From positions 16,484 to 80,483 of the IMG/VR virus record IMGVR_UViG_3300046673_000114: a stretch of DNA of 64,000 bases; one strand, written 5' to 3'. The notes beneath the pieces were generated by a model. It was not told where the DNA came from. It saw only the letters and a list, made by a program, of their open reading frames with translations, and did no database searches. Both the position numbers and the translations under genes were made by a program. Below are positions 2 through 56,368 of the stretch, one piece after another. The stretch comes from a virus. Position 1 is the stretch's first letter. Each line of letters begins with the position of its first letter.

Positions 2-3000
2 TCTATACAGTTTAATTCCACAAGTAACTGCCTACAAGTTAATAAAGTCGCTTCTACTGGCACGCGTTGGAATACGTGGTTTACAACTACTACACCAGTA
101 ACGGCCGGTAACTGGTATTTTATTCAGATAACGTGGAACGTCGGCACAACTGAAGGAACTGCAAATCCGATTTGTTATATTAATAATGTTAATCAAACGA
201 TTTCTCAGGCGCTAACGAACACTGGAAGTTGGACTACCGATGCAGGGGGTATCATATGTATCGGGAATGAGTACCCCGCTGCAAATCCGAGTCAGTTCTA
301 CGGGACTCTAGTAGTAGCTAGAATTCATAACGTTATCCTTACCTCCGGTGCAGGTAGTCAGCTAGAAGGTAATTATAACGCGAGTAAATGGCGCGCACCT
401 ACAATTAAAAACGCATATGTAAACGTTGATGTGCCGGGTGCCGCTGCTGCACTAATCACACTAAGCAAAATACGAACCGACGCGAAGCTTAACGTTTCAT
501 CTATCGTTTCTAATGCGACAGCAGTTAGTTCCGTTGTTTCTCGCGCAGACGCGAAAATTAACGTTGCCACTATTACGAGTACGGCCGCACCTGTAACGTG
601 TATTCCGGGACTCGGGCATTCTATTACCGTAGACGTACCGGGCGCGGTAGCTGCACCCATCACGCCATCCGCGTTTACTACCGGCATTACCTCGCCGGAA
701 ACCGACTCACTCGCCGCGTCTACAGAAGCGGGAAGTTTAAGTAACGTAACCGTAACCATAGCTGAAGCCGATTCCCTAGCGCCGTCTGAAAACGTTTTAT
801 CGAATACTTCAATAGCCGAAACGGATGCGCTCATAGCGTCAGAGACGCCGAACGTCGCGCTCGAGGCCGATGAGGTTAGTACCCTTACACCAATCGAGGC
901 ACCATCAACCGTAGCTACATTAGCCTCTACCGAAATAGACACACTTATACCAATAGAAGCGTTAACGATTGAAGAAGATATAACGATAGGAGAAACCGAC
1001 GCGCTAAGCGAAGTAGAACAATCGGGAGTCGGTGGTAATTATGAGTACGTTAACGCATCAGAAGACATTATATTACTCAACCTCGAAACGCAAGCGTTAA
1101 GTGCGACCGCAGAAGCAGACGAGACGCAGGTTCTAACACCGGACGAAGAGGTTATAGATGAAGCTGATTTAACTGAAATCGATACGATTATACCCATAGA
1201 AGCGCCAGCAGGCGAGGTAGATGTCGGCGAGACTACTTTAATATCATCAACAACTGAGACTATCGATACCGAGGCGTACTATTCGCCGGTTATACACGAA
1301 ACCGTTGTACTTACGCCGATAGAAGCAACCGGCACGGATAGCGGAATCGTAGCATCGGTAATCGTTAACGAGTTTATTACACTAAAACCTCTTGAATTAA
1401 CCACCCCTCAGATTCCGGTGCTTGTCGCCGAACCGGAAATACTCGTCACTTTCGAAGAGATATTACCCGAGGTTGTTATCGATTATGCCGATAGCGATAC
1501 GCTAGACATAACCGAATCTATAAGCATCGAAGCGAAGTTCTCTCCGTTACAGGGACTCGTAGAAAGTGACGCGCTTAATCCTCTAGAAACGTCAACGTTC
1601 GCGTCGACGCTTAGTATTAATGAATCTACGAAACTCGCGCCGTCTGAAACCGCGCATCTTACACTAGCAGAAGTCGAATATATAACGCATAACGAAGTGA
1701 TATACCTCGACGCCGAGGACTCAACGCTTAACGACCCCGTTGTACTAATACAGACGCCACACGGTCCCGCGACGATAGACGCGCTTGAGGTACAAATTAA
1801 CACTACTGAATCTAACAAGCTTAATTCTATAGAAGTCGCAGATATTAATCCGAATGTCTATCACGCACCACCTCCGCTAGTTGATTATGTCTTAGAAGTT
1901 CGAAAGAAGGACGGTAAAAATTGGGATTTAGTAGGCGTATTAGAAAACCGCGTCGCACCAGAGTTACAATGTGAAGTAGGTGCGGCCGACCAGCTTACCT
2001 TTAACCTCCCACTTTCCGACCCAAAATCGCTTTTATTTAACGCATCTAACACGCGTGGATTAGAGGTATGGTATTACGGTAGAGACTCGAAGCTTAAACA
2101 AGTTTTTACGATTACCGGCGGCGGTAAGACAGAAGGCTATCGAGACTACGGCGGAAACCCAGGTGGAAGCGGTAGCACGCTCGGAACCGGCTCGGGAGAT
2201 TGGCTCTACGTTACCGCGATTGGGCCTGAGGCATATCTAACAATGTATTATGTCGCAGACTACACCGCAACGCAAAAGTATGTTTCTTCGATATTAAACG
2301 CTATTTGTGGAGAAATAATAGATGATGGATATATAACCGCCATTCTCGTTGACCCTGCTCTTAATAAACTAATTGATATTGACTTATCGTGGGAAAACCT
2401 ACAGAGTGCGTTAGGTAACATCATTCAACAAACCGGCGGCTATATGCGCGTCTTAGTAAACTCGAATAACCCGTCGAGTCGAGTACTATATCTCTCAAGT
2501 GAAGTCGCTTCAGACATATTCCCGATTAATCTCGGCGGCGTGACGGCTGATTCGGTGGGCGTTTGCTCGTGGGGGCCAAATAGATTAGACTTATTCGCGC
2601 GAGGCGAAAACTCGAGTATCTATCATAAATATTGGAACGGTACTTCGTGGTCTGGTTGGGCTACTCTTGGCGGAACCACTGATAGCGCGCCTACCGCGTG
2701 CTCGTGGGGGCCGAATAGAATAGACGTTTTCGTTCGCGGAACTGATAATATATTATATCAAAAATATTGGAACGGTGCGTGGTCTACATGGATACCACTC
2801 GGTGGCACGCTCACCTCTGCACCAGCCGCAGCTTCGTGGGGGCTAAATCGCATCGATGTAGTTGCTCGCGGAACGAACAATCAACTATACCACATATACT
2901 GGAACGGTATAAATTGGTCAACGTGGGGTACTCTAGGCGGCGACTGCACGAGCGACCCGGCTATAGTATCGTGGGGTGAAAACAGACTAGACGTCTTCGT

Positions 3001-5047
3001 GCGCGGCACCACTATGGAGTTGTATCATACGCGATGGGACGGTTCAACGTGGTCGACGTGGGAAAACCTCGGCGGTTATCTAACCACCGGCCCGGGCGCT
3101 GCGTCGTGGGGGGAGAATAGAATAGACGTTTTCGCTGGCGGAGAGGATAACGAGCTAGAATGGCAATATTGGGGTGGCGACGTTGGTACTCCAATTCACC
3201 AGCAGGGAATCGCGTTCGACGGGACGTATTATTATTATACAACGGATTCTACGATTTATAAGCTCGACGCAAGTTATAACGTCATTGCGTCTAACGCAAA
3301 CGCGGCCACGCAGTGTGGTGGTGACCACCTCGGCGGTTTAGGCATACATAGCGGAACTATATACCAATTCTGCACAACGGATGAGACGCCGCAAGTTATG
3401 ATGGTTGGATTATTTAATACGAGCGATTTAAGCTTTATAAGAAATGTCGATTTAACGAAAGTCGCCGGGAATCCGCCGACGTGGAGTACTTATAACATCG
3501 GCGGCGTGGGTGTAGACGCTGCGAATAACGAACTTGTAGCGATTCACTTCGGTGACGCCGGTAGTCTGTCAGTCGTGGCCCCAAAGGTGTTTAAATTCAA
3601 CTTGAGCACGTTTGCGTACTTAGGTTACATTACTGGAACGGGCGACTTAGGAATCTATTATCAAGGCATCTGCCCGTATGATGGGGTTTATTATTACACC
3701 GTCGATAATTCGTCAAACGCCAACTCACCTACGCATCTACTCGGCGGCGTGTATATGATGAACCCTGACGGAACGGGCCAGACGATGATAATACCTGCGT
3801 CTGTTTTCAATAATGCGGTATCCGATTTAGCGTGGAGTGGTGAGATAGAATCACTCAGCGTGACGGACGCGGGTATTGTTGTGCTTTGTGGTGGCTATAT
3901 CTTTACCTTCTCTCTTGAACCGCCATATACATTACAAAGCGTCACACCGGGACTACAAGAATTAACGCCTGTGTGGTCTGGATGGGAGTCTTTAGGTGGT
4001 TACGTTCAATCATCACCGGCCGCTTGTAGTTGGGGATATGGAAGAATCGACGTGTTTCTCGAGGGGCCGGATGGTGCAGTCTATCAAATGATATACCAAG
4101 AAGACGTGTGGCAGCTAAAGAAAAAGAATAGCCTAACTAAACACGGACGCGTAGACTGTCCTAAATGCCCGAAGGCCGTGAGAAAAGAAGCAGCCGAGCG
4201 TAAAGAAGCAGCCGGAGACGTAGAACCGCAAAACGTATGGTCTAATTGGAACGCGCTCGACGTAGACCAGATTCAGCCACCGGTCCCGATTATAAAATAC
4301 GATGTATTCCCGAGTATGGGTGACGTGATAAATAACGACTTAGGCGATAGCGCATACGACGGAGTTGCGTTTAATAACGGTTTCACACAACTTCAATGCG
4401 GCGTTGGTGCGTGGGTGTTTAACGCGCCGCAAGACGTCACGTGGACGAATAACATTCAAATTACGAGTGGGCCGGATATTACGGGATTAGCAGATATGAC
4501 CCTTAGTATGTGCGTATATATCGACGCGAATCAAACGGCGGTAAATAACCCGAGGCTATTCTCGAAACAACAGGAGAACGGCGCGTTTGAGCTAATCTAC
4601 GACACGTTTAACCAAGCACTCATACTTAGACGATACACAACAAATAACGATTATGACGAGTGGAGAAGCGCACAGAACTCAGTTCCGATAGGCGATTGGT
4701 ATTATATTCAGTTAATATGGCAAAGTAGCGTTAGCCCGGAAACAGAGAGTCCGCCGGTTATTATCGTTGATAACGAGCAGTTAACACTTGTTAATACAGA
4801 AGCCGGAACGGGATGGTGGTCGCCCGACTACTCCAACAATCTCTATATCGGTAATAGCTACTTATTAGATGGCAGCGGTGATTTCGTTGGCATAATGAGC
4901 TTCTTTAGCCTATATGGCGCGGCTATAGTAGACCCAACAGACGACTTTAACACTAACGCGTGGCGGCGAGACCCCGCCGACGTAGACGCGCAGCTTGTTT
5001 ATAATTTCTTCCCACAAATAGTAACTTCCGAGGTGGCAAGTCAGTGA
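2..5047 (+). CDS. Giant tail hub/adhesin protein, 5' partial: LamG-like domain, acidic repeat shaft, N-terminal part of a Tal/prophage-tail-like hub, PLL-type lectin propeller, inserted propeller, LamG-like domain
   Basis: Frame is open from base 2, in frame with the 431 ORF (GNWYFIQITWN...ICIGN LamG-like motifs). SWGPNRLDLFARG...W.GW..LGG repeats. Hub-like segment VGVLEN...LTFNLPLSDPK...SWENLQSAL. Confidence 0.8.
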   Translation, partial: SIQFNSTSNCLQVNKVASTGTRWNTWFTTTTPVTAGNWYFIQITWNVGTTEGTANPICYINNVNQTISQALTNTGSWTTDAGGIICIGNEYPAANPSQFYGTLVVARIHNVILTSGAGSQLEGNYNASKWRAPTIKNAYVNVDVPGAAAALITLSKIRTDAKLNVSSIVSNATAVSSVVSRADAKINVATITSTAAPVTCIPGLGHSITVDVPGAVAAPITPSAFTTGITSPETDSLAASTEAGSLSNVTVTIAEADSLAPSENVLSNTSIAETDALIASETPNVALEADEVSTLTPIEAPSTVATLASTEIDTLIPIEALTIEEDITIGETDALSEVEQSGVGGNYEYVNASEDIILLNLETQALSATAEADETQVLTPDEEVIDEADLTEIDTIIPIEAPAGEVDVGETTLISSTTETIDTEAYYSPVIHETVVLTPIEATGTDSGIVASVIVNEFITLKPLELTTPQIPVLVAEPEILVTFEEILPEVVIDYADSDTLDITESISIEAKFSPLQGLVESDALNPLETSTFASTLSINESTKLAPSETAHLTLAEVEYITHNEVIYLDAEDSTLNDPVVLIQTPHGPATIDALEVQINTTESNKLNSIEVADINPNVYHAPPPLVDYVLEVRKKDGKNWDLVGVLENRVAPELQCEVGAADQLTFNLPLSDPKSLLFNASNTRGLEVWYYGRDSKLKQVFTITGGGKTEGYRDYGGNPGGSGSTLGTGSGDWLYVTAIGPEAYLTMYYVADYTATQKYVSSILNAICGEIIDDGYITAILVDPALNKLIDIDLSWENLQSALGNIIQQTGGYMRVLVNSNNPSSRVLYLSSEVASDIFPINLGGVTADSVGVCSWGPNRLDLFARGENSSIYHKYWNGTSWSGWATLGGTTDSAPTACSWGPNRIDVFVRGTDNILYQKYWNGAWSTWIPLGGTLTSAPAAASWGLNRIDVVARGTNNQLYHIYWNGINWSTWGTLGGDCTSDPAIVSWGENRLDVFVRGTTMELYHTRWDGSTWSTWENLGGYLTTGPGAASWGENRIDVFAGGEDNELEWQYWGGDVGTPIHQQGIAFDGTYYYYTTDSTIYKLDASYNVIASNANAATQCGGDHLGGLGIHSGTIYQFCTTDETPQVMMVGLFNTSDLSFIRNVDLTKVAGNPPTWSTYNIGGVGVDAANNELVAIHFGDAGSLSVVAPKVFKFNLSTFAYLGYITGTGDLGIYYQGICPYDGVYYYTVDNSSNANSPTHLLGGVYMMNPDGTGQTMIIPASVFNNAVSDLAWSGEIESLSVTDAGIVVLCGGYIFTFSLEPPYTLQSVTPGLQELTPVWSGWESLGGYVQSSPAACSWGYGRIDVFLEGPDGAVYQMIYQEDVWQLKKKNSLTKHGRVDCPKCPKAVRKEAAERKEAAGDVEPQNVWSNWNALDVDQIQPPVPIIKYDVFPSMGDVINNDLGDSAYDGVAFNNGFTQLQCGVGAWVFNAPQDVTWTNNIQITSGPDITGLADMTLSMCVYIDANQTAVNNPRLFSKQQENGAFELIYDTFNQALILRRYTTNNDYDEWRSAQNSVPIGDWYYIQLIWQSSVSPETESPPVIIVDNEQLTLVNTEAGTGWWSPDYSNNLYIGNSYLLDGSGDFVGIMSFFSLYGAAIVDPTDDFNTNAWRRDPADVDAQLVYNFFPQIVTSEVASQ

Positions 5048-7560
5048 GTATAGTAACCGTAGAATCCGATGAGATTGCAGTTTTATTACCGTATGAACAG
5101 ATTCCTTTTTCGAGTATAGAAGCGGACGAAGTGTCTACGCTACTACTCGATGAGGTAACGCTTCCCGAATCGTGGTATCTAGAAGAAGCAGGAGTAAGCG
5201 TCGTTAGCACGCTTGTTCCGAACTTCGGTGCCGCTGGAACGGACTATCACGCTTATGGCGCGCAAAATGACTTTATAACGCTTCCGAGCGGCGCGACAGC
5301 GTGGCAGCTTAGCGGCAATATGGATTATATAGCGATTCCTCGCGGCGTTAGTATTGATAACGTAACGCAAACGACCTTCGAATGGTTGTTCATCCTTAAT
5401 GATTATAGTGGTAACCACGCCGGTAGATTATGGTCAAAACGTCAGACTCACGACGGAAGTTTTGATGTTTACGTAGACGATATAAACGGCTGTATCGTAA
5501 TTCAACGAGGCACGATTCTAAACGAGCTAGACGTGTGGCAGACGCCAAATAACGTAATAGACGTAGGTCAGTGGTGCAACCTTCAGATAACGTGGAACTG
5601 TGATATTTCGGCCGGTGGCGACGCGCCGATAATTATAATAAACGATACACCTCAAGAACTTCTTCACACGAACGTTGCGAATCCTGCTCTATGGGCGGAT
5701 GATAGTAACGACGACGCGTTTATTGGAAATGTTATAGGTGGCGGCTATAATCTAAATGCGACAATAGCGGTATTTAGACATTTTACGACCATAAAAACCC
5801 CGTCGAAGCTTACTACGGACTATCTCGCCGACGTGTGGCGCACGAGTAATAAACAATTAGGCCCGATTACCGTCTCATCGGGACCAAGTAACGACACCGA
5901 CCCGATACTCACTATTGAAAAGAATCTTAGTAACATCTACGCACAGACTGATTTCTCGACGGTCGTCACGCAATGCGAGCCGCGAGGCATAGGACAAAAG
6001 CCAGCAGAGCTTCGATTTAATAATCCTAATTATTATCCTAATGCACAAGCGTTACAGCTCTATACAACCGACACGAGTTGGGCGTATTTTAGACTTCAAA
6101 GTCCTTATGTTTATGCTAACGCTACATATTCTGGACAGCCGTTGCCTAGCACTATGCTCGTAGGAACCGGATTAACTGATTTCTGCAATATTTCGCCTAC
6201 ATTACAAGCCGATAGTACATACCCCGACCCTAACATGGGAGAGTCACCGCCAGCACCTTATGACGGTCAGCCGATTGGACGTGATGACTTTGCTGGACAC
6301 GGACTCGTTTTTAAACTAAACGCTAATACGCGTTTCACCGACGCTAGTTTTTTCTTATATAAAAAACCGGCAGCGACGGCCGGTCAAAAAGCGCATCAGT
6401 TTCTAGTAGGAATTTATTATATACAAAACACCCCCGACGCGGCCCTAAATGAATACGTTCCATCTCAGGGGCCGTTAGTTTGGTATATCGGTGACCTCGA
6501 CCAGATTCAGCCGGATACGTGGGCGTGGTACACATTCCCCTTACAACAAGCAGCGATAAGTCATACACCGTGGGATTGGTACGCTCTAGTGATTTCAGTG
6601 TATCCGACGACCGGCGCGAATTGGGAAGGCGACATTCTTTGGGTCGGTTTTAAGATGACGAATGTAGAACCGACACAAAATACCCCGTATCAGTTTATGT
6701 GGACGTTCGCAGGTAATCCCGCGTACTCTGCCGGAAGTAATGTTAAGAATTGGGCAAGCGCAGCAATGGCCGCGAAAGCACCGGGTGCTATGTCGCGCCC
6801 TGCTTGCGTTCTTCATTCAATAACAACAGATTTAACGAGCGAGTTTCAACAGAGTCTAAACGCGTGTCCGGGCTGGCAGCTTAAAATGCCGATAGCAAAA
6901 TACTCGCCGACTTCGCAATATTGGGCGCATTACCAACAAGCGCCGTGGCTTATCGATTGGGAGGCGTATTCGACAATGGGTAAAGTAGAAGGAACCTATA
7001 AATCAGACACGCTTTCCTCACACGACGCGCTCTTTAATGCCGGTGCAAATTATCTATCAACGGTGTCTAACCCGACTTATACAATTTCGCTAAGTGCATT
7101 AGACTTATACGATTTAGACCCACAGAAGAATTGGGCGGAAGAGCTTCGTCTCGGAACGACGGTTATGGTACTCGACGCCGAGCTTAATATTCAAGAACAA
7201 TGTCTCGTAACGAAAATTACTAAAGATAACCTCGAGCAGCCTCACGACATACAGATAGAATTAAACAGTTTATACGCGACTGCGGCGAGGTCGATGGCGA
7301 ACATAAATCAATCGAGTATTACCTATCCAAAGTATCTAAGCGGCCAAACGGTCTCTGCACCGTATATAATGAGTGGTGCTTGCACTGATACGACCCCGGC
7401 ATCACTCTACTTTGAGATAAAAGAAGGGAGTACGCTTGTTCCGTCGGTTACGATAAGCATAAACCCGACACCATATCAGGTGGCGACGAGCACCGGCGTT
7501 ACCTCTGATACAAGTACCTCTACCGCGTTTAAAATGAAAATAGACGGTGTAGTGGTGTAG
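5044..7560 (+). CDS. Tail protein: LamG-like domain plus middle/C-terminal part of the Tal-like hub
   Basis: GTG start 7 nt after GAGGTGG. Motifs KNLSNIYAQTDFSTVVTQCEPRG and PTYTISLSALDL...LRLGTTVMVLDAELNI...IQIELN resemble siphovirus prophage-tail proteins. Confidence 0.75.
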   Translation: MSIVTVESDEIAVLLPYEQIPFSSIEADEVSTLLLDEVTLPESWYLEEAGVSVVSTLVPNFGAAGTDYHAYGAQNDFITLPSGATAWQLSGNMDYIAIPRGVSIDNVTQTTFEWLFILNDYSGNHAGRLWSKRQTHDGSFDVYVDDINGCIVIQRGTILNELDVWQTPNNVIDVGQWCNLQITWNCDISAGGDAPIIIINDTPQELLHTNVANPALWADDSNDDAFIGNVIGGGYNLNATIAVFRHFTTIKTPSKLTTDYLADVWRTSNKQLGPITVSSGPSNDTDPILTIEKNLSNIYAQTDFSTVVTQCEPRGIGQKPAELRFNNPNYYPNAQALQLYTTDTSWAYFRLQSPYVYANATYSGQPLPSTMLVGTGLTDFCNISPTLQADSTYPDPNMGESPPAPYDGQPIGRDDFAGHGLVFKLNANTRFTDASFFLYKKPAATAGQKAHQFLVGIYYIQNTPDAALNEYVPSQGPLVWYIGDLDQIQPDTWAWYTFPLQQAAISHTPWDWYALVISVYPTTGANWEGDILWVGFKMTNVEPTQNTPYQFMWTFAGNPAYSAGSNVKNWASAAMAAKAPGAMSRPACVLHSITTDLTSEFQQSLNACPGWQLKMPIAKYSPTSQYWAHYQQAPWLIDWEAYSTMGKVEGTYKSDTLSSHDALFNAGANYLSTVSNPTYTISLSALDLYDLDPQKNWAEELRLGTTVMVLDAELNIQEQCLVTKITKDNLEQPHDIQIELNSLYATAARSMANINQSSITYPKYLSGQTVSAPYIMSGACTDTTPASLYFEIKEGSTLVPSVTISINPTPYQVATSTGVTSDTSTSTAFKMKIDGVVV

Positions 7561-7564
7561 AACG

Positions 7565-8572
7565 ATGACAACATACGCAGCGTATCAATTATGTGCAGAA
7601 TCATTCTCAAACTATGCTCAACTTAAAAGTCAGGGATTTATTGACCTCGTTCTAATTGAAAATATAAATAGTAGTTGTAACGCGTGTCCGGTTCCGCAGG
7701 GCTTTATAAACGGATGTACTGCGCAGGGAATGGGTTCGCTCTTAAATAACGGTAATGACGCTGGCGGAGGTGGGGGTGGCGCGAATCAGTCATACTATGC
7801 CGGACTAAAAAAGCAGGGATTAAGTGGGGCCGGTGGTGAGTCTGAAAGTCTAGATGAAGTTAACGCCATTTTAGCAAACACAGATAGTACGTTTGTCTTT
7901 ATGAACTATGGTGGACAGGGAACCGGCGGCCCAACAGGTAATAATAACATATGGGCTTCGCAGGGTGGTCACTGCTCGTATAGTGGTGGTGCAACGATAG
8001 GCTCAGGACAAAAAGTCTCTTCGTTTATAGAACCTTACGCACCGGGACTAATGTCGACTGAAGAGGTAGAAACCGAAGCCGGGTACAATAAAGACGCTGG
8101 TTGTTTTGAGGTTGGGATTTTAATAGTAGATTGGTTCCCCGGTGCTAATTATGCGGGATATGCAGACGCGGTAATATCCTCAGGAGCTACCTTCGGGGGT
8201 TTTCAGTTCTGGTATGTAGAAGGAGACAGCGCGAGCGGAAGTAATAATTGGGGACCCGGAAGTAGCGATATAAATAATATGATGAAACAGTTTCCGCCGA
8301 ATACTAAAAACATAGTGCAGCGCGCCGGTGGGTCGTCACCCGGTGGCGGCGGAGGTGGGGGGTCGGGGCCCGGTAGTAATATTCCGGCAATCACAGGCGG
8401 TAATACGTTCGGCGGTAATAGTGAGGTTGATATTTTACCATATCTAACGCAAAATCATCAGGGTCAGCCAACGCCGGGTGTACACTACGTAGAGCTTAGT
8501 TCGGCAGATGGAATACGCGCACAAGTAACCGCTTCAGTACGCGTACGAACTTGGCAGCCAAAGGAGATGTAG
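7565..8572 (+). CDS. Virion-associated putative glycoside hydrolase (TIM-barrel-like) + Gly linker + tail C-terminal module
   Basis: N-terminal ~255 aa align with 33355..34524; C-terminal 63 aa shared with the next gene. Confidence 0.6.
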   Translation: MTTYAAYQLCAESFSNYAQLKSQGFIDLVLIENINSSCNACPVPQGFINGCTAQGMGSLLNNGNDAGGGGGGANQSYYAGLKKQGLSGAGGESESLDEVNAILANTDSTFVFMNYGGQGTGGPTGNNNIWASQGGHCSYSGGATIGSGQKVSSFIEPYAPGLMSTEEVETEAGYNKDAGCFEVGILIVDWFPGANYAGYADAVISSGATFGGFQFWYVEGDSASGSNNWGPGSSDINNMMKQFPPNTKNIVQRAGGSSPGGGGGGGSGPGSNIPAITGGNTFGGNSEVDILPYLTQNHQGQPTPGVHYVELSSADGIRAQVTASVRVRTWQPKEM

Positions 8573-9576
8573 ATTAGATAATGTCGCAATATATCTACTA
8601 CAAGTTTGATAAAAGTTCGACTACAATCACAAATTATGGTAGTGGTGGTGCTGGTTGGAACGGAGCCGCTGCACGAAATCAGTATGCTACCGACTCAGCA
8701 GGGCATCCGAGGTGGGGGCCGCTAACCGGTAATCAAGATGTGATACACGTTCCCGGCGGTCTTAGCAATCCATATCAGCACACGTGGCAGATTGGATTAA
8801 ATATTCAGCAGTGGTGGCCGGTTAAAGGTATAGACTCTAGTGGCATCCTTTGTGGTAACGACGGAAAGCTCTTTTCTTACGCTAATGACCAGTACTACGC
8901 CTACCTTCACGAAGAAGGGTCAACCGCAAGCGGGTCGCTAGTTGAAACAGGCATACATCATTTTACTGTTGAAATTGCGGACGTCGGTAGTGGTAGTGTT
9001 GAGTTTTGGCTTGGTGTGGGTAGTAGTAAACCCGTTCAAATATCTACTGATGGAGGCGAAGGTGACGAGGGTGGGCGACACTGGTGGGATTTCGACTACA
9101 ACTTACAGTTAAACACTAATTACTATTTTCAGATTGTGATAAACCTTAGTAGCGGCGTGACGGGAAGCGATTATTATATTGGCAATTGTGCGCCGGGGTG
9201 TGCTGATACGATGGTAGTCGGCTTTCCGTGCGGATGTTACATTTACTCGTGGCGTGAAGATAACACAGTTCTTGACCTATCGGGCGGTGGCAACTGGAAA
9301 GACGACGTTGGCTGTTGGGCTGGTGGAACGTGCGGGGGCGCAGCCGGTGGCGGCGGCGGCGGTGGTGGTGGTCCCGGTAGCGTAATTCCAGCAATTACAG
9401 GTGGTAACACGTTCGGGGGTAATAGCGAGATTAACATTCTACCTTATCTAACGCAAAATCATCAGGGTCAGCCAACGCCGGGTATGCACTCTGTCGAGCT
9501 TAGTTCAGCAGATGGAATACGCTCGCAAGTAACCGCTTCGGTGCGCGTACGTGATTGGCAACCTAAGAATATGTGA
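8381..9576 (+). repeat. Duplicated 192-bp coding module (8381-8572 and 9385-9576)
   Basis: 56/63 aa identical (IPAITGGNTFGGNSE..ILPYLTQNHQGQPTPG...WQPK.M), with many synonymous differences. Confidence 0.95.
8581..9576 (+). CDS. Virion adhesin: LamG/concanavalin-like domain + Gly linker + tail C-terminal module
   Basis: YIYYKFD...ITNYGSGG start and LQLNTNYYFQIVI...YYIGN pattern; shared C-terminal 63 aa. Confidence 0.6.
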   Translation: MSQYIYYKFDKSSTTITNYGSGGAGWNGAAARNQYATDSAGHPRWGPLTGNQDVIHVPGGLSNPYQHTWQIGLNIQQWWPVKGIDSSGILCGNDGKLFSYANDQYYAYLHEEGSTASGSLVETGIHHFTVEIADVGSGSVEFWLGVGSSKPVQISTDGGEGDEGGRHWWDFDYNLQLNTNYYFQIVINLSSGVTGSDYYIGNCAPGCADTMVVGFPCGCYIYSWREDNTVLDLSGGGNWKDDVGCWAGGTCGGAAGGGGGGGGGPGSVIPAITGGNTFGGNSEINILPYLTQNHQGQPTPGMHSVELSSADGIRSQVTASVRVRDWQPKNM

Positions 9577-9821: not shown

Positions 9822-10190
9822 ATGGAAGACGTTGTAAAGTGCATAGACGCAAGACTCGACGAACATCAGGAAAATATCTCTCGTATTAGTACTAGCGTCG
9901 AAGACTGCGAAGTTACCATAGGGAAACAAGACGTTCGTATCGACCATCTCGAAGAGGGACTTAACGACGTGAAAGCGCACCTCGACCTACAAGATGAGAC
10001 GACGGACAACCGCTTTAACGAATTAAGCGATAAGATAGATTCAATCCAAGTTAATAACGTACAAGCAGAGTCAAACACGCGAAACGCATTACTCACTAAG
10101 CAAAACGCGTTTTATGTCTCACTAATCCTAGCGCTTATCTCACTCATCGGCTACTTACTCTATAACTCGATAAACATAGCGCATATCTAA
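9822..10190 (+). CDS. Coiled-coil protein with C-terminal TM helix (holin/XhlA-like)
   Basis: Heptad pattern then FYVSLILALISLIGYLLY; lies after the tail genes. Confidence 0.55.
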   Translation: MEDVVKCIDARLDEHQENISRISTSVEDCEVTIGKQDVRIDHLEEGLNDVKAHLDLQDETTDNRFNELSDKIDSIQVNNVQAESNTRNALLTKQNAFYVSLILALISLIGYLLYNSINIAHI

Positions 10191-10847: not shown

Positions 10848-12055
10848 GTCAATTACCCACGCTAAAGCGATGGGCTTGTATCTCCTTCAACTTTTAGGGA
10901 TACAATAGGCTGATTGACGGCAGCCCTCGAAGCGATGTTCTTTGCCGCATTTATATCGGCGTTTTCAGTGTATCCACACGCAACGCAAACAAACTCGCTC
11001 TGTGTCTTGCGGTTCTTCTTGTCAATGTGTCCACACTCTGAACACTGCTTCGACGTGTTTCGCGGGTCGATTAGATGGACGGGAACGCCGTTGAGTTTCG
11101 CTTTGTAGTCTACGAACCATCTCAACTGGCCGAACGCCCACTTACCGAGTCTACCACGCTGTGCCTTTCTAACCGTTGTCCGAGAGCGTATGTGCGTCAA
11201 GTCCTCTAATACAATCGCTCTCTTTGTGTCTTTGGCTATTCCAACAATAACTTTTGAAATACAATGATTGAGATTCGTCTTAAACTTCCGTTCTTTGCCG
11301 CTCGTCCGCTTCAGATGCCGCTTCGCGCTCTTGGTTCCTTTCGACTGAAGTGCTGACTTTAGCTTCGTGTAGCGCGTTCTAACAGCATCGGCCTTATCGC
11401 CACTGAAGTGCTGACCGTCGCTTGTGGTTGCGATATTGACAATTCCCAAGTCTACACCTAAGTAGCCTTCCGCGTTGTATTCTGTCACCCCTTCAACTTC
11501 CACGACCACGCAGAGATAGAACGTTCCCTTTTGAAGTATCAAGTCGGCTTGTCCTCTGACTCGTCGCTGTTCAAGTTGGGCGTAGTCCCCGATTGAGAAC
11601 GGTATGAGCTTTCGACCGTCGAGAGTCAAGATTGAAACCGAATCGAGAGACTTGAACGATAATATTCTTTGGTCATAGACAACAGCGCTGTGTGGTTTGA
11701 ACGTGTGTAGCTCTTGCCGGTGTCCTTTGCCACGGTATGACTCTGAGACTTTGGCTATCGCTCTGACTGCTAACTGTGCCGATAAACCGTAGGTATCTCG
11801 AATATAACGATAATGCTGCTTTTGAAGCGTCCGTTTACCGAATACTCCTTCTTGATAGGAGACTGACGAAACGTAGTTGCACGCTTCGTTGAACCGTTCC
11901 ATTGTGGTTAAGAGGGCAGCATATTGCTCGTCGGTCGGATTGAGCTTTGCTTTAACGGTTAGCAGCATCATAGAATATATGGCTCTATTCTTAGTTAAGT
12001 TTTGTGTTAGACGCGATTCCTCTCAACGCTAAAGCAGTTGAGCTTCCTCGCTCGA
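10848..12055 (-). mobile_element. IS200/IS605-family element, tnpB only (IS1341-like)
   Basis: Subterminal hairpins CCCACGCTAAAGCGATGGG and CTCAACGCTAAAGCAGTTGAG; right end ...GTAATTGAC; TTTAT 5' of the left end. Confidence 0.85.
10862..11971 (-). CDS. tnpB: RNA-guided endonuclease TnpB
   Basis: RuvC motifs GVDLG, LEDL and NADINAA; zinc ribbon CSECG...CVACG. Confidence 0.95.
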   Translation of the reverse strand: MMLLTVKAKLNPTDEQYAALLTTMERFNEACNYVSSVSYQEGVFGKRTLQKQHYRYIRDTYGLSAQLAVRAIAKVSESYRGKGHRQELHTFKPHSAVVYDQRILSFKSLDSVSILTLDGRKLIPFSIGDYAQLEQRRVRGQADLILQKGTFYLCVVVEVEGVTEYNAEGYLGVDLGIVNIATTSDGQHFSGDKADAVRTRYTKLKSALQSKGTKSAKRHLKRTSGKERKFKTNLNHCISKVIVGIAKDTKRAIVLEDLTHIRSRTTVRKAQRGRLGKWAFGQLRWFVDYKAKLNGVPVHLIDPRNTSKQCSECGHIDKKNRKTQSEFVCVACGYTENADINAAKNIASRAAVNQPIVSLKVEGDTSPSL

Positions 12056-20406: not shown

Positions 20407-21632
20407 CTTCTCCCCCAGCTAAAGCAGGGGGCTTCTATCGATTGAACGAACAGAGGCAAGCCCACCTCTGAGTATGTTGATTGCAGCGTTCTCATCGCGG
20501 TCAGCGACATAGCCGCAGTCACACGAATGTATGCGGTCTTTCAGTTCCTTCTTGACTATTTGACCACACCTGCTACATTCCTGAGTAGTATTCTTAGGAT
20601 TCACCAGCACCACTATTGAACCAGCTTCCTCCGCTTTGTTCTGTGTTGCGTTAATGAATTGAGTCCACGCAGCGTCGCCTATCGATTTGGCGAGGTAGTG
20701 ATTCTGCTGCATACCTTTGACGTTCAAATCTTCAAAGGCGATTATGCCGAATCTGTTAACGATTGCACGGCTCAGTTGATGCGCGAAGTCGTTTCGTCTG
20801 TTAGCTATCCGTTCGTGGATTCTTGACACCACCTTTCGGGCTTTCTTCCTTTGTGGTGCGCCTTTCGCTTGAGCTGAGAGTTTACGCTGCGCTTTCGCTA
20901 ACGCTTTTTCATCGTGCCTAAAGAATCGTGGGTTCTCGACTTTCTCACCATTAGACAGCGTGGCAAACGACGTTAGTCCTACGTCTACCCCAACAACAGC
21001 CCCGTCTTTGAATGTTTGGGTCTTAGGTTCGTATTCTGTGGTGAAACAAGCAAACCACTTCCCCATAGAACGCTTGTTTATGTTCAGCCGTTTTATCACA
21101 CCTTCAATCGGGCGATGCAACACTATCTTGACGTTTCCTATCTTTGACAGCATTAAATCATCTGCTTTAAGAGCGAATCCCATTTGTGGGTAGGTGAATG
21201 AATCATAGCGCCCTTTGCCTTTGAACCTCGGATAACCTGCTTCTTTCTCTCCTGCTTTGACACGTCTAAAGAACGCTTTGAAGGCTAAGTCCACACGTTG
21301 AGAGACTTCTTGTAGCACTTGCGAATGAACGCTTGTCAGCTCCGGTCTATCACGCTTCCATATTGGTATCAACTTGTTCGTGTCATATCTGCCAAGTGTC
21401 ACACCCTTTGACTCATATGCGGTCTTTCGCGTGGCTAATACCTCATTATATACCCATCGGCACAACTCTAAGGTTTGATTCATCTTAGTTTCCTGTGCCT
21501 TTGTCGGATAGAGCCGATAGCGATAGACCTTATGCATTGTTTATCTATTGGCATTATTAGCATAAGAATGTTAGGGTTAGGAACGCTCTGTATCCCCACC
21601 TTAAAAGGTTGGGGTTTTATCGCTGCTCACTC
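20403..21632 (-). mobile_element. IS200/IS605-family element, tnpB only, inserted in the last codon of cdc6
   Basis: Right end CCCCTGCTTTAGCTGGGGGAGAAGTCAC; left hairpin CCCCACCTTAAAAGGTTGGGG; TTTAT target motif. Confidence 0.9.
20419..21537 (-). CDS. tnpB: RNA-guided endonuclease TnpB
   Basis: YRYRLYPT, GVDVG, FEDL and DRDENAA. Confidence 0.95.
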   Translation of the reverse strand: MHKVYRYRLYPTKAQETKMNQTLELCRWVYNEVLATRKTAYESKGVTLGRYDTNKLIPIWKRDRPELTSVHSQVLQEVSQRVDLAFKAFFRRVKAGEKEAGYPRFKGKGRYDSFTYPQMGFALKADDLMLSKIGNVKIVLHRPIEGVIKRLNINKRSMGKWFACFTTEYEPKTQTFKDGAVVGVDVGLTSFATLSNGEKVENPRFFRHDEKALAKAQRKLSAQAKGAPQRKKARKVVSRIHERIANRRNDFAHQLSRAIVNRFGIIAFEDLNVKGMQQNHYLAKSIGDAAWTQFINATQNKAEEAGSIVVLVNPKNTTQECSRCGQIVKKELKDRIHSCDCGYVADRDENAAINILRGGLASVRSIDRSPLL

Positions 21633-33354: not shown

Positions 33355-34524
33355 ATGAATCATACGTGTGTTTACTTCATCGCGGGGGATTCGTATTCGA
33401 ACCTTCCCGAGATTAGAAGTGCAGGAATTATAGACGCCCACCTAGTTATTCATGGTGGGGGCGTAACACCGCCAAGCCAATTCGTAAAAGACTGCATTGC
33501 AGCCGGTCTAAGCCCGATATGCAATAACGGGAACGATGGTGGTGCAGGTTGGGATGGCTCAGCTAGTTACTACCCTAATCTATTTAATATGGGCTATCAC
33601 GCGGCCGGTGGCGAATCCGAGCAAGCAAACGAGATTGATGCGATAATGAATTCTGGTATATTCCTCGACTACGGTGGAGAAGGAACCGGCGGGGGAACCA
33701 ACGACGATGTTTGGAAGGAAACACATACCGCGCCCGTTCACGGCGGGGGCTGTGCCGGTTACTACGAAACCTACGATGGTTCCGATAACTTTTGGGGTTG
33801 GGACGTCGTAGGTAGTGGAATGAAAGACGCGAAAGCGCACGGCGTGAAAGAAATAGGCATAATGATTGGCTCGTGGATGCTAGACCACTCGACTGTGCAA
33901 GACTACATAACACTCGCGCAGACGATGGAATCTAACGGAATCACTTGTGCGGGTTTCGGGGTGTGGTCGGGCTATAATAATAACATGAATAACGTCTATA
34001 ACGAGTTTGCGAGCTGGTATCAACAGCTAATGGCGATTTGGCCGCCAACAAGCATCACAATGAAGAATCGGTTTAGTGGTCCGACACCAACGCCAACACC
34101 CACACCGGCACCAGTAGCCGCCGACGGCTCTAATCCCGCAGTAACGTATCTAAACGGCGTGAAGTATTCATTCGCTCGTGGCCTAAGTAACGCGCTATAT
34201 TACCTCACCGATGGCGCGACGAAGTGGCTCTCTCTCGGTGGTACGTTAACCTCGGGAGTAGCGGCCGAAACAGTCGGTAACGAGATTTACATATTCGGTA
34301 GAGGGGCCGATAAGAAAACAACATACTATCGAACACTCACGAAAGAATGGACTTCAATCGGTGGAATCGCTACGAGTTCGCCCGGCTTAACACTCGACAG
34401 CAACGGTAAGACACTTCTCGTAGAAGTTCGCGGTGGTGATAAAGCAGTCTGGTATAGGACTCTCGATACCACAACAGGCGCAGTATCGCCGGAGTGGCTT
34501 TCTCTCGGTGGGGTGCTTAATTGA
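33355..34524 (+). CDS. Putative glycoside hydrolase barrel + PT linker + three lectin-type blades (endolysin-like)
   Basis: N-terminus homologous to 7565..8572; C-terminus homologous to that of 55121..56368. Confidence 0.65.
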   Translation: MNHTCVYFIAGDSYSNLPEIRSAGIIDAHLVIHGGGVTPPSQFVKDCIAAGLSPICNNGNDGGAGWDGSASYYPNLFNMGYHAAGGESEQANEIDAIMNSGIFLDYGGEGTGGGTNDDVWKETHTAPVHGGGCAGYYETYDGSDNFWGWDVVGSGMKDAKAHGVKEIGIMIGSWMLDHSTVQDYITLAQTMESNGITCAGFGVWSGYNNNMNNVYNEFASWYQQLMAIWPPTSITMKNRFSGPTPTPTPTPAPVAADGSNPAVTYLNGVKYSFARGLSNALYYLTDGATKWLSLGGTLTSGVAAETVGNEIYIFGRGADKKTTYYRTLTKEWTSIGGIATSSPGLTLDSNGKTLLVEVRGGDKAVWYRTLDTTTGAVSPEWLSLGGVLN

Positions 34525-38174: not shown

Positions 38175-38789
38175 GTGCGGCCGGAAGAAATAATGAAATC
38201 AATAAAAAAAGAAAAGAGACTAACTAAAAAAGAGCAGCTTCAAAAAAGAAGATATGATTTTTGGAGACTTATGTCTCACGGCGCAACTCTAGCCGACGCC
38301 GTTAAGATGATTTCAGAGAAATACGGTGTCGGTAAAGCCGTTTTATATAGCGATTGGGCTAAACGAGAGGAATGGGGTGTCGTCGAGGAACCAGAGAAAA
38401 ATAGAATAGTAAAAGATGGTCTGTTTTCATTACAAGAAACAAGACGTTATCTTTGGAATCTTATTAACGCTTCACCAGAACAGCTTAACGAAGACGGGGT
38501 ATTAGTCGACTCTCGAGGCGTGCCGATGTGGCCGTTTGAATTACCAGATGTTAAGTTAAGAGCTACTACGATAGCGAAGATTATAGAAACAGATTTCGCG
38601 GTTATCCGAATGACGCAAAGCATAGGCATCGTTCCGCAAAAGGGAATGACTATTTCTATGTTATCCGAAAACTCTGCTGAAATAGAAAAGAACCTAGACG
38701 CGTATTGCGGTGACGATGTAGAGCTAAAAAGAGCGGTATTAGTCGCACTCGATACGATGGCGAGGGGTGTAAGTGGCGAAGACTCCTAA
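38175..38789 (+). CDS. Terminase small subunit candidate
   Basis: N-terminal HTH (ISEKYGVGKAVLYSDW); overlaps the terL ATPase gene. Confidence 0.55.
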   Translation: MRPEEIMKSIKKEKRLTKKEQLQKRRYDFWRLMSHGATLADAVKMISEKYGVGKAVLYSDWAKREEWGVVEEPEKNRIVKDGLFSLQETRRYLWNLINASPEQLNEDGVLVDSRGVPMWPFELPDVKLRATTIAKIIETDFAVIRMTQSIGIVPQKGMTISMLSENSAEIEKNLDAYCGDDVELKRAVLVALDTMARGVSGEDS

Positions 38790-39651
38790 ATACACACTAA
38801 AGAAAAGACCGCGCGGTAGGCCGCGTAAAGAGAAACCGGCAGCGAAAGAGAAGAAAGAATACTCTACCGATGCAGTTCGTTATCTAAAGTATAAGATGGC
38901 CCCGGACGTGTGGGTAGAAGAAAACTATGATATAACGCTCGATTCGTGGCAGAAAGAAGCATTAAACACCCAATCGAATCGCCTACTACTTAATTGTTCA
39001 AGACAGGCGGGAAAATCGACCGTTGTTTCTCTATTAGCGCTACACCATGCGTTATTTACACCTAAAGCATTAGTCCTCGTCGTCTCACATACGGATATTC
39101 AAGCGAAAGAAACGTTTAAGAAAATAGCCGATAGCTTCCACGACCTAAAGACCGAATGGTATAAAAGCGAAGTAGACACCGTTTATGAGATTAGGTTTAA
39201 CAATAAAAGTCGTATCATAGCACGAACGGGACAACAACCAGATAGCTTACGAGGGTATAGTGGTGTTACGCTTTTAATCATCGACGAAGCTGCATCAGTT
39301 TTAGAAGAAAGTTATATGGTTCTTAAACCAATGCTTGCCGTCTCGAAAGGAAAGGTAGTTTTGCTTTCTACGCCTAAAGGTAAACGAGGTTTCTTCTATG
39401 ATGCGTATAAAGACGCGCACGAGAATAACCGAGAGAGCTGGCATTACTTAGAAATAAAAGCCGACGATTGTCCTAGAATCACGCAAGAATACTTACTAAG
39501 TGAAAAAGAGCGCAATCCCGATTGGGTATTCGAGCAAGAATACTATTGTGTCTTCATTTCGAATGTGAGCAACATTTTTCCAAACGTTGCCGACTTATTT
39601 ATAGAAATGCCCCTAGACGACCACTGGTCATTCGATTTAGACTTGGATTAA
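38773..39651 (+). CDS. Terminase large subunit, ATPase domain only
   Basis: WQ motif, SRQAGKS, LIIDEA, LSTP, FEQEY; ends before the nuclease domain. Confidence 0.9.
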   Translation: MAKTPKYTLKKRPRGRPRKEKPAAKEKKEYSTDAVRYLKYKMAPDVWVEENYDITLDSWQKEALNTQSNRLLLNCSRQAGKSTVVSLLALHHALFTPKALVLVVSHTDIQAKETFKKIADSFHDLKTEWYKSEVDTVYEIRFNNKSRIIARTGQQPDSLRGYSGVTLLIIDEAASVLEESYMVLKPMLAVSKGKVVLLSTPKGKRGFFYDAYKDAHENNRESWHYLEIKADDCPRITQEYLLSEKERNPDWVFEQEYYCVFISNVSNIFPNVADLFIEMPLDDHWSFDLDLD

Positions 39652-47432: not shown

Positions 47433-48188
47433 ATGCCACGTAGAGCGCCAATTTGGGGTCTTGAACATCTTTCAGATGATGAATACAAGACATCTTTAGA
47501 GGGTCGATATAAGGATAGAGAACTCCCGACAGAAGCCACACTAAAAGCGCGTAAGGAAAGCCAAGAGAAACGCGAAAAAATAGTTATAGTTGGCATAGAC
47601 CTCGGAAAGGAGGTTGATGCAACTGTTTTAGCCATCGTCGAACCAACCGAGAACTACGAAAATCCTATTTATCTAGTGCACAATGTTATCCCCGTCCGCT
47701 TAGGGACAAGTTACGCAACGATAATAAGTAGTGTTGCGGCACTCGACGAACAGCTTCGTCTCCGTAAGAACGCAATTGATGTTAAGTACGTAGTAGACGC
47801 CGGGGGTGCGGGGGGCGTCGTCGATAGTCTCGAAGAAGCGCTGCCTAAAGCGGATATTTATAAGGTGCATATAACCTCGGGGTACGAATCCACTATCCAT
47901 GATGATTTTAAAATCGGGCTCCCTAAACGCGAGTGGGTCACCACCCTTAAAAAAGTATTAGAAGCGAAAAGAGTTAGGTTTCATTATATCGACGACGACG
48001 GTAGAAGAGATTCGGGGATGAGACTCTTAGAAAACGAAATTAACAATTTTCAGATGAAGATTTCTCAAACGGGATACGATAAATACGAAGCAAGTAGCGG
48101 ACATCACGACGACGCGGTTCAAGCATTAGGGTTAGCCATCTGGTTCGGCGAGCGTGAAGCGGGGCGTGGGCCGTTACGAATATGGTAG
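47433..48188 (+). CDS. Terminase large subunit, RNase H-like nuclease domain as a separate gene
   Basis: VGIDLGKEVDAT, LGTSY, VVDAGGAG and GHHDDAVQAL. Confidence 0.88.
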   Translation: MPRRAPIWGLEHLSDDEYKTSLEGRYKDRELPTEATLKARKESQEKREKIVIVGIDLGKEVDATVLAIVEPTENYENPIYLVHNVIPVRLGTSYATIISSVAALDEQLRLRKNAIDVKYVVDAGGAGGVVDSLEEALPKADIYKVHITSGYESTIHDDFKIGLPKREWVTTLKKVLEAKRVRFHYIDDDGRRDSGMRLLENEINNFQMKISQTGYDKYEASSGHHDDAVQALGLAIWFGEREAGRGPLRIW

Positions 48189-55120: not shown

Positions 55121-56368
55121 ATGAGTAAACCATTTAGAAGAGGCTTAGGCTGTAATCGTGACCCGCCCCACAAGGACGCACCGCGCCTACTAAGCCGCGA
55201 ACAGATAGAAAAACTCCCGGCGAGTTATATGATTAAAGACTTAACTCCTGTGGGTGACCAAGGAAACGAAGGGTCCTGCACAGGTAACGCTGGTGACAAC
55301 GTATATAAAATCCGCGACGCTATGATAAACGGAACGTTTGTTAACGGTGCGCGGCAGCAGATTTATCAGTGTGCCTTAGCCCACGACGGCAATCCATTTC
55401 AGGATGTGGGCTCTAGTCTATCAACAATAGCGTGGGTTCTCCAGAACGTCGGTGTTGCGCCTGAGTCGGAGTTTCCGTACACTGGGGGAATGCAGGGCGC
55501 AGTTCCAACCGCCGTACTTAACGACGCTAAGAAACACGAAGCCACAAAAGAACTACGTCTCGACGCAACAGATGAAACCACAACAATAGCTAACGTTAAA
55601 GCGGCAATCGCACCAAACGCAGTTATACAATCTAGTTACCCGGTCATGTTCGGCTTTGACGTGCCTGAGTCTTTCTTTAACACTGGTTCATCAGGTAATA
55701 TGCCCACTCCTAGCGGTGGCATTGCAGGTGGCCACGCTAACGTTTTCATAGGCTACGACGACGCACATACGGGTAACTATGACGGAAGCAAAGGCGCGTT
55801 TTATATTAAGAACAGTTGGGGCTCTGGTTGGGGTGCTAATGGGTATTGGTATATGCCCTACTCGTTTTTCCTAGATACCGACGATGGGGTCGGTGACTGT
55901 TGGGCCATAATAAATACCTCGGACTTTAACCCTAGCCCCACACCCGGTCCCGCGCCAGTAGCAGCAGATGGCTCGAATCCTGCAACGTGTGTCGTTAATG
56001 GAACAACGTATGCGTTTGGGTGGGGTTTAAGCAACGCGCTTTACTATGCCATTCTAGGTGGTAATACGTGGAAGTCTCTCGGCGGAACGCTAAGCTCTGG
56101 TGTCGCAGCGGTTACCGTGGGTAATGACGCATATATCTTCGGACGTGGCGCGAATAAAGAAACGCTTTATTATCGAACGCTTACGAAGAATTGGGTCACG
56201 GTGCCTATGGGAACCCTAGTCGCGACGTCAGCACCGGCAGTAACCGCGAGTAACGGTATCATAGCACTCGAGGTTCGTGGCGGCGATAAGGCAGTCTGGT
56301 ATGTTACGCTTAATACCGCTACTGGTGCGTTCGGTAAGTGGACAAGTCTAGGTGGTCAGCTAAACTAA
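55121..56368 (+). CDS. Papain-family (C1A) cysteine protease + three lectin-type blades
   Basis: DQGNEGSC, GGHA and KNSWG..WG.NGY; C-terminus shared with 33355..34524. Confidence 0.9.
   Translation: MSKPFRRGLGCNRDPPHKDAPRLLSREQIEKLPASYMIKDLTPVGDQGNEGSCTGNAGDNVYKIRDAMINGTFVNGARQQIYQCALAHDGNPFQDVGSSLSTIAWVLQNVGVAPESEFPYTGGMQGAVPTAVLNDAKKHEATKELRLDATDETTTIANVKAAIAPNAVIQSSYPVMFGFDVPESFFNTGSSGNMPTPSGGIAGGHANVFIGYDDAHTGNYDGSKGAFYIKNSWGSGWGANGYWYMPYSFFLDTDDGVGDCWAIINTSDFNPSPTPGPAPVAADGSNPATCVVNGTTYAFGWGLSNALYYAILGGNTWKSLGGTLSSGVAAVTVGNDAYIFGRGANKETLYYRTLTKNWVTVPMGTLVATSAPAVTASNGIIALEVRGGDKAVWYVTLNTATGAFGKWTSLGGQLN

Follow-up and report, generated by a model that had tools for sequence, protein, structure and literature searches.

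Virion-borne and soluble lysins that share catalytic modules are ordinary in phages. How most archaeal viruses pass the S-layer, by comparison, is "still a mystery" according to one review, which calls the factors behind lytic egress in head-tailed archaeal viruses "completely uncharacterized" (PMC10791045). Archaeal tailed viruses have no known enzymes for S-layer entry or lytic egress save the Pei peptidases, the pseudomurein-degrading lysins of head-tailed methanogen viruses, which are made in the cytoplasm and cross the membrane in a way that is unknown (PMC10791045, PMC12596118). The only virion glycan hydrolysis demonstrated to date is that of the fusellovirus SSV19, which relies on a different domain from the one described here (PMC12042106). 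The SSV19 virion hydrolyses the host N-glycan, and its tailspike VP4 carries an endo-mannanase-like domain (PMC12042106; PMC9351363). Here we describe an unannotated barrel domain that is encoded twice, in open reading frames (ORFs) A and B, within the final 64 kb of the 80,483-base virus record IMGVR_UViG_3300046673_000114 in IMG/VR (positions 16,484 to 80,483). This 64,000-nucleotide stretch is referred to below as the window.

We propose that the barrel belongs to a new (beta/alpha)8 glycoside hydrolase (GH) family with a Glu87/Glu138 pair, that it cuts host envelope glycans, and that the virus uses it twice. We put the probability of this reading at roughly 0.55.

The proposed system resembles SSV19 in that an archaeal virion would carry a glycan-cutting domain, here predicted from genes. 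In contrast to the virus described here, SSV19 is a spindle-shaped fusellovirus of Sulfolobales and is not tailed; its mannanase-like domain, with Asp/Asp as key residues, lies within a 137-kDa tailspike, and no soluble second copy has been described. PeiW and PeiP are peptidases specific for pseudomurein. The window instead encodes a barrel whose key residues are of glycosidase type, accompanied by a papain-family (C1) protease, and a Pei-type enzyme was not seen within it. Like PeiW and PeiP, ORF B is predicted to be made in the cytoplasm. As in phage virion lysins, depolymerases and modular endolysins, one catalytic module appears to occur both on the tail and in a soluble form with a binding domain, linkers part the modules, and the genes lie beside tail genes or just upstream of terminase. 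In contrast to the phage lysins, murein is excluded as the target if the host is archaeal, the catalytic family is unannotated, attachment to the tail would use a short C-terminal strand or module found on several payloads, and the partner is a papain-like protease.

Two copies of one barrel domain

ORF A (7565..8572, 335 amino acids) and ORF B (33355..34524, 389 amino acids) are both complete and lie 26 kb apart on the + strand. ORF A starts 4 nucleotides past the stop of the preceding tail gene, with GGTG upstream, and TGGAG lies 11-14 nucleotides 5' of the ORF B ATG. The domain common to both is about 245 residues long and occupies residues 1-245 of each product (7565..8299 and 33355..34089). 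It is followed in ORF A by a Gly-rich linker and a predicted C-terminal tail-docking module, and in ORF B by a Pro/Thr linker and three lectin-type repeats. The products are 27% identical over 262 residues (BLASTP, E 5e-18).

A preliminary description, made from the letters alone, had pointed to a related pair of GH18-like barrels. The span that it assigned, 7565-8335, covers ORF A residues 1-257 and corresponds to the barrel domain, and the related copy that it placed at 33355 is real. Each motif that it named is found in both products: NNGND (ORF A residues 61-65, ORF B residues 57-61), SYY (76-78, 71-73), AGGESE (89-94, 84-89), YGGxGTGG (115-122, 106-113), E(P/T)Y (156-158, 138-140), ExGI (182-185, 166-169) and GFxxW (212-216, 200-204).

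A profile search of 1.84 billion representatives recovered only 66 clusters, 57 of them at E<=1e-10. Because ORF A and ORF B both fall in this one family, their likeness reflects homology rather than chance. The virus holds two old copies of one unannotated barrel domain. Related loci are labelled L0xx below. Two barrel copies per genome also occur in IMGVR_UViG_3300038428_000087 (loci L017 plus L024) and on C5, one contig of G407, a metagenome-assembled genome (MAG) from peat classified as Korobacteraceae (Acidobacteriota).

We modelled both copies with AlphaFold2. For ORF B residues 1-245, modelled from 21 aligned relatives, the predicted local distance difference test (pLDDT) score was 88.6 and the predicted template modelling (pTM) score 0.89 (model m83eaf875f578). 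The model contains strands at residues 5-11, 27-31, 53-57, 83-85, 102-105, 133-138, 166-172 and 198-204, with a helix after each. Full-length ORF A, modelled with 52 sequences, contains the same barrel, mostly at pLDDT above 90 (model m295ba9be93f4). Past the barrel, pLDDT falls below 50 at residues 261-283, and the chain ends in a small helix-plus-hairpin module (one helix plus two strands, pLDDT 72-80). Because both models show eight strand-helix units, the predicted fold is a (beta/alpha)8 barrel. The alternating eight-strand pattern read earlier from the sequence is upheld in both copies, and neither model shows a fold other than a barrel.

Barrel enzymes hold their active sites at the C-terminal face of the strands. 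We mapped conservation onto the models with an alignment of 52 sequences that reaches down to 16-25% identity; conservation counts refer to this alignment and residue numbers to ORF B. Five residues are invariant (E87, G108, Y140, G168 and W204, each 52/52), and E138 is kept in 51 of the 52 sequences. W174 and N60 follow at 46/52 each, D61 at 44/52 and N57 at 41/52. On the model, E87 lies two residues past beta4, E138 is the last residue of beta6, Y140 is two residues past beta6, W174 lies past beta7, W204 closes beta8, and N57, N60 and D61 lie past beta3. Strand-end zones on the C-terminal side make up 23% of positions and contain 10 of the 15 most conserved non-Gly positions (hypergeometric p 2.7e-4). 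No His, Lys or Arg is invariant in the alignment. The candidate catalytic codons are E87 (33613-33615), E138 (33766-33768), Y140 (33772-33774) and W204 (33964-33966) in ORF B, matched in ORF A by E92 (7838-7840), E156 (8030-8032), Y158 (8036-8038) and W216 (8210-8212), all on the + strand. By strand topology, as opposed to measured distances, E87 and E138 fall at C-terminal strand ends and not away from the cleft.

GGESE had been put forward as a divergent catalytic motif. Its first Glu (E87) is kept throughout the family, its second (E89) in only 29/52 sequences, and a distant clade reads AGEG at this site, with no acid at -2 or +2; the motif is therefore no analogue of DxDxE across the family as a whole. 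ORF A, ORF B and their near clade carry E-x-E after beta4. Position -2 of the invariant Glu is Gly or Ala, and Asp is found at neither -2 nor -4. Beta4 thus has no family-wide acid pair, because the second Glu is variable, the distant clade lacks it and the -2 position is never acidic. E138, at the end of beta6, is the better-kept partner carboxylate.

In the proposed mechanism, the active site would lie at the C-terminal face of the barrel, where Glu87 and Glu138 would form a carboxylate pair. Tyr140, Trp174 and Trp204, together with the loop that carries Asn57, Asn60 and Asp61 (NxxND), would grip the sugar. The YGGxGTGG loop after beta5 is Gly-rich, with pLDDT below 50 at residues 110-113, and in the near clade could act as a lid.

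Tail-borne and soluble forms

ORF A lies in the tail module. Directly 5' of it is an 838-amino acid Prophage_tail/Tal-like protein (5044..7560, + strand; PF06605, E 1.9e-14, and PHROG tail families), which is itself preceded by a giant tail protein (2..5047, + strand; PF03984, E 6.2e-16). The frame of the giant protein runs off the window start, and its 2,399-amino acid open frame includes four DUF346 repeats. Eight nucleotides beyond ORF A begins a second tail payload (8581..9576, + strand), which consists of an N-terminal domain without a family, a Gly linker and the same C-terminal module as ORF A. For the N-terminal 260 residues of this payload (8581-9360), the sole lead is a Laminin_G/ConA-like match in the ESM Atlas (0.79-0.81).

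The barrel of ORF A is followed by a flexible linker (residues about 257-271, 8333..8377) recognized from its run of Gly and low pLDDT. The C-terminal modules of ORF A (8375-8569) and ORF 8581-9576 (9380-9573) are 63-65 amino acids long and 88% identical (E 2e-39), and end in an anchor strand that reads VRVRxWQPKxM in the window. The surrounding gene order recurs in relatives. L017 and L019 encode, in order, a fragment of the giant tail protein, the Tal-like protein, a 276-amino acid barrel protein, a 664-amino acid papain-like protein and a homologue of ORF 8581. G407 contig C5 also keeps the order of Tal-like protein, barrel and more payloads.

In L017 and L019, all three payloads end in a Pro/Thr linker and the same strand of about 12 residues, with the consensus V-x-V-R-x-Y-Q-P-G-x-E. 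The Tal-like protein of L017 ends with DIMQYLTQSHTGQPTPGEHTVEV, a segment that in the window is part of the C-terminal module carried by ORF A and ORF 8581. The docking module resembles a single domain of which the tail provides one part and the payload the other. Since this fits a docking element that the two segments would form together, a tether between ORF A and the tail tip is very probable. This agrees with the earlier view of ORF A as the virion-bound copy, as predicted from genes and their order. As such a payload, ORF A would hang from the tail by its flexible Gly linker and the docking module that the next gene's product also carries, and would thin, clear or cut the envelope glycan layer at adsorption or entry.

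Two further observations concern this module. In L017 (6206-11725), only the last strand of the docking module (VRVRxYQPGxE type) is present on the payloads, and the first half is on the Tal-like protein. Directly after the tail module of the window, 9822-10190 encodes a 122-amino acid protein whose N-terminal part is a coiled coil and whose C-terminal part has one membrane helix, possibly a lysis factor that is holin-like or membrane-anchored.

ORF B lies outside the tail module, as expected of the free copy in the preliminary description, and carries a lectin-like tail. Upstream of it is a PD-(D/E)XK nuclease gene, and the gene for the terminase ATPase lies downstream, at 38773. The product has no signal peptide, and its N-terminus is strand beta1. 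The arrangement of barrel (1-245), Pro/Thr linker and three lectin-type repeats matches the layout of a modular lysin without a signal peptide. The repeats (34117..34521, + strand) are three WxSxGG units. The last 140 residues of ORF B are 63% identical (E 2e-52) to the tail of a papain-family (C1) cysteine protease encoded at 55121..56368 (+ strand; PF00112, E 3.4e-15), and BLASTP aligns the ORF B tail with the DUF346 repeats in the giant tail protein at 35% identity (E 7e-10). A precomputed annotation assigns the ORF B C-terminus to PF26607; the PF03984 HMM (hidden Markov model) matches the giant tail protein only. DUF346 repeats are those of PLL, a fucose lectin (PMC10481521).

An association between barrel and protease is found in several relatives. 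The barrel gene is followed directly by a papain-like protease gene in at least seven loci (L003, L018, L020, L021, L023, L024 and L025; the protease homologues lie, for example, at 8993-10246 in L003 and 3951-5138 in L018). A terminase gene comes next after the protease in six of the seven, and L024 ends within the protease gene. The 664-amino acid protease relative of L017 serves as a tail payload. ORF B would be a soluble form made in the cytoplasm, with lectin repeats that direct it to the same glycans as ORF A. Together with the papain-like protease that carries the same lectin tail, ORF B may constitute an endolysin-like pair that dismantles a glycoprotein layer from within at lysis.

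The large terminase of this virus is itself encoded in two genes, an ATPase (38773-39651) and a nuclease (47433-48188), which lie 7.8 kb apart with other genes between them. In relatives the two parts adjoin or overlap, as at 10938-11729 and 11726-12403 in L003.

Fusion partners of the barrel across the family include PLL/DUF346 repeats, Ig-like, CarboxypepD_reg and B_lectin domains, and a tail-fibre-like region; in L016 the barrel heads an 885-amino acid protein whose C-terminal part is tail-fibre-like. In the barrel tree, with tail classes assigned by rough regular expressions, forms with an anchor strand branch among forms with a lectin tail. Because the tail forms are intermixed, the barrel appears to have swapped its targeting tails, and it behaves as a module that did so several times.

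Family assignment and alternative readings

The barrel of ORF A and ORF B matched no family in scans of Pfam (hmmscan, E<=1), PHROG or NCBIfam. When the 52 family members were compared with Pfam at E<=10, no glycosidase family was hit, only accessory Ig-like or lectin domains. Searches of PDB sequences with single proteins and with a profile gave nothing meaningful, the best match being a 34-residue xylanase stretch (E 0.035). No characterised family was therefore matched in any of these sequence collections, and the barrel remains "unassigned", as it was first called. Family members that carry a name are all a "hypothetical protein".

We identified 24 barrel loci in IMG/VR. A genome contig collection, searched with one pattern, gave no barrel match, and none came from the genomes sampled in three archaeal phyla (401, 351 and 351) save one 24.9-bit partial match. 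The single "cellular" match is G407 contig C5 (95 kb; L097-L100). We rejected it as cellular, since its GC content differs from that of its bin (45-47% vs 56-59%) and its sequence runs collinear with that of the window, at a nucleotide identity of 67-77%; it is probably a mis-binned relative of this virus. The barrel has so far been seen only on viral-type contigs, from tailed viruses of peat and similar metagenomes. We conclude that it is a new sequence family within a known fold, which would perform a familiar type of task in a setting that has not been explored.

Both models were used for an exhaustive structural comparison with 48,161 PDB representatives. GH18-fold chains rank first for both, and by our own count make up 22/50 and 18/50 of the best 50 chains, with a few GH20 chains besides; a second comparison again placed the GH18 fold ahead. 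The leading ORF A matches include 6k7z and 6s2x (13.9 each), SleL (13.8) and hevamine (13.5). In shape, the likeness to GH18 suggested earlier is thus recovered for both copies, by a narrow margin. GDPD/PLD-type barrels also occur among the structural matches. Foldseek searches of BFVD gave weak matches only (generic barrels, GH5 and Spherulin4, E>=2.5e-4).

In GH18, a DxxDxDxE motif lies at the end of beta4, a Tyr lies on beta6 (xYD), and a Trp on beta8 lines the -1 subsite. GH18-fold proteins (hevamine 1HVQ, SleL 4S3J, Legionella pneumophila ChiA 6S2X and the XIP-I/concanavalin B type) are compact barrels of similar size. By topological analogy, the viral barrel would match them at three places: the acid that directly follows beta4, the Tyr two residues past beta6 and the Trp closing beta8. 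It differs from them in having no DxxDxDxE and no profile similarity, a single invariant Glu at beta4, an extra near-invariant Glu at the end of beta6, and, past beta3, an NxxND loop in place of the SxGG of GH18. The PF00704 HMM matched neither the whole virus record nor the 52 family members at E<=10. Alignment with hhalign to six bona fide archaeal GH18 domains gave a probability of 0.1%, with templates, here and for Spherulin4 below, that were built from few sequences and limit sensitivity. Membership of GH18 fails because two defining features are absent, the DxxDxDxE motif and a match to the PF00704 profile.

Two other assignments were rejected. Enzymes of clan GH-A (4/7 superfamily) have an acid/base Glu after beta4 (N-E-P) and a nucleophile Glu that ends beta7. 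In the viral barrel, beta4 reads G-E, not N-E, and beta7 ends in GxW without a conserved acid. E166 sits where beta7 begins and is kept in only 38/52 sequences. Sph3, of the Spherulin4/GH135-type exopolysaccharide hydrolases, is a small (beta/alpha)8 barrel similar in size to the viral domain. Comparison with three Spherulin4 domains by hhalign gave 1.2%, out of register, and Pfam gave no match to this family (PF12138). Phage Spherulin4 proteins are among the weak BFVD matches, and the best 50 structural matches include no structure of Spherulin4 type. The best ESM Atlas scores (0.83) include a Spherulin4 cluster, a lead only, below the level that counts.

Several observations weigh against a glycoside hydrolase used at entry and lysis. 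First, the structural matches fail to part GH18-type glycosidases from barrels of other function: scores are 13.5-13.9 for KDO8P synthase and KGPDC vs 14-15.2 for the GH18 fold, a margin over unrelated barrels (KDO8P synthase, KGPDC and PseI) of only about 1-1.5 Z, and Foldseek on its own puts KDO8P synthases first (E about 1e-4). Second, the Glu residues are placed in the cleft by strand topology, and the proposed site leaves two conserved acids unexplained. D27 (D/E in 49/52; 33433-33435) and E166 (38/52; 33850-33852) lie at the N-terminal ends of beta2 and beta7, respectively, both on the face opposite the presumed active site. Third, ORF B sits among replication and recombination genes, with no adjacent holin gene. 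Finally, the RNA evidence is qualified. Contigs identical to the window occur in peat metatranscriptomes of at least two studies, and such contigs span 4746-8301 with 0 differences; this counts in favour as presence in RNA libraries but indicates neither transcription nor its strand or level, and the contigs could derive from carried-over DNA.

It is unlikely that the barrel is not a hydrolase at all and acts instead as a dead carbohydrate-binding receptor module, or as a lyase, esterase or phosphodiesterase on the envelope. Non-catalytic GH18-fold proteins (XIP-I, OsXIP, concanavalin B, narbonin and the tamarind lectin) are among the best structural neighbours, a place at the tail tip suits a receptor-binding protein, and the GDPD/PLD-type barrels among the matches would be consistent with other chemistry. 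The strict retention of two carboxylates, a Tyr and two Trp at the predicted catalytic face over deep divergence is instead typical of an active enzyme, and GDPD/PLD-type chemistry is disfavoured by the lack of an invariant His. A second binding module would moreover be redundant, because the free form has its own lectin domain.

The interpretation in the preliminary description, a divergent member of clan GH-K (GH18-type) with substrate-assisted, hexosaminidase- or chitinase-like activity, strikes us as quite improbable. According to this interpretation, the ExE of GGESE would replace the DxE of DxxDxDxE, the beta6 Tyr would polarise the acetamido group, and the beta8 Trp would stack against the -1 sugar. 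The lead of GH18-fold chains in the structure search speaks for it, as do the invariant xY at the end of beta6 and W at the end of beta8, which match GH18 places by positional analogy, and the E-x-E after beta4 in ORF A, ORF B and the near clade. It is set back by the PF00704 and hhalign results, by the narrow Z margin, and by the beta4 site itself, where the second Glu is variable, AGEG takes the place of the motif in the distant clade, and -2 is occupied by Gly or Ala.

A cytoplasmic barrel of the phosphoenolpyruvate-dependent aldolase type (KDO8P, DAHP, sialic-acid or pseudaminic-acid synthase), carried as an auxiliary sugar-metabolism gene, can be set aside as highly implausible: the Foldseek ranking and the presence of a viral UDP-glucose dehydrogenase and GT4-like protein would suit it, but the invariant Lys, His or Arg that such enzymes need is lacking, no sequence match to those synthase families was found, and one copy lies in the tail module with a docking tail while others are fused to lectin, Ig-like or tail-fibre parts.

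We therefore favour a new glycoside hydrolase family with the E87/E138 pair. More tentatively, and with somewhat less than even confidence, we suggest that the barrel is the founder of a GH family specific to archaeal tailed viruses that, together with the papain-like protease, breaches glycosylated protein envelopes.

Host, habitat and implications

Several genes implicate an archaeal host. The virus encodes an Orc1/Cdc6 protein (Cdc6_lid, E 2.3e-19), and its UDP-glucose dehydrogenase is closest to that of Thermoplasmata (47%). The closest cellular relatives of its TnpB proteins are from Methanothrix, Methanosarcina, Methanocella, Methanolobus and Methanoregulaceae, at 58-65% identity. These gene affinities suggest that the host is probably an archaeon, perhaps a methanogen. 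An 83% TnpB match in the "Korobacteraceae" MAG does not point to a bacterial host, since it lies on the mis-binned viral relative described above. The stretch that encodes the tail module is found in peat metagenomes of many studies (2018-2025).

The window contains three TnpB (OrfB_IS605/Cas12f-like TNB) genes, at 10862-11971 (- strand), 20419-21537 (- strand) and 62888-63988 (+ strand).

The family offers an expressible candidate of about 245 residues, with four residues to mutate and with tail-borne and soluble forms. The recurring C-terminal anchor strand, if its role is as proposed, would let one tail carry different enzymes by simple means. If the proposal is true, a single catalytic module serves at both stages, attached to the tail tip when the virus enters and joined to a lectin when it leaves. 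If active, the barrel would represent a new glycosidase family and a tool to open the envelopes of peat archaea, possibly methanogens.

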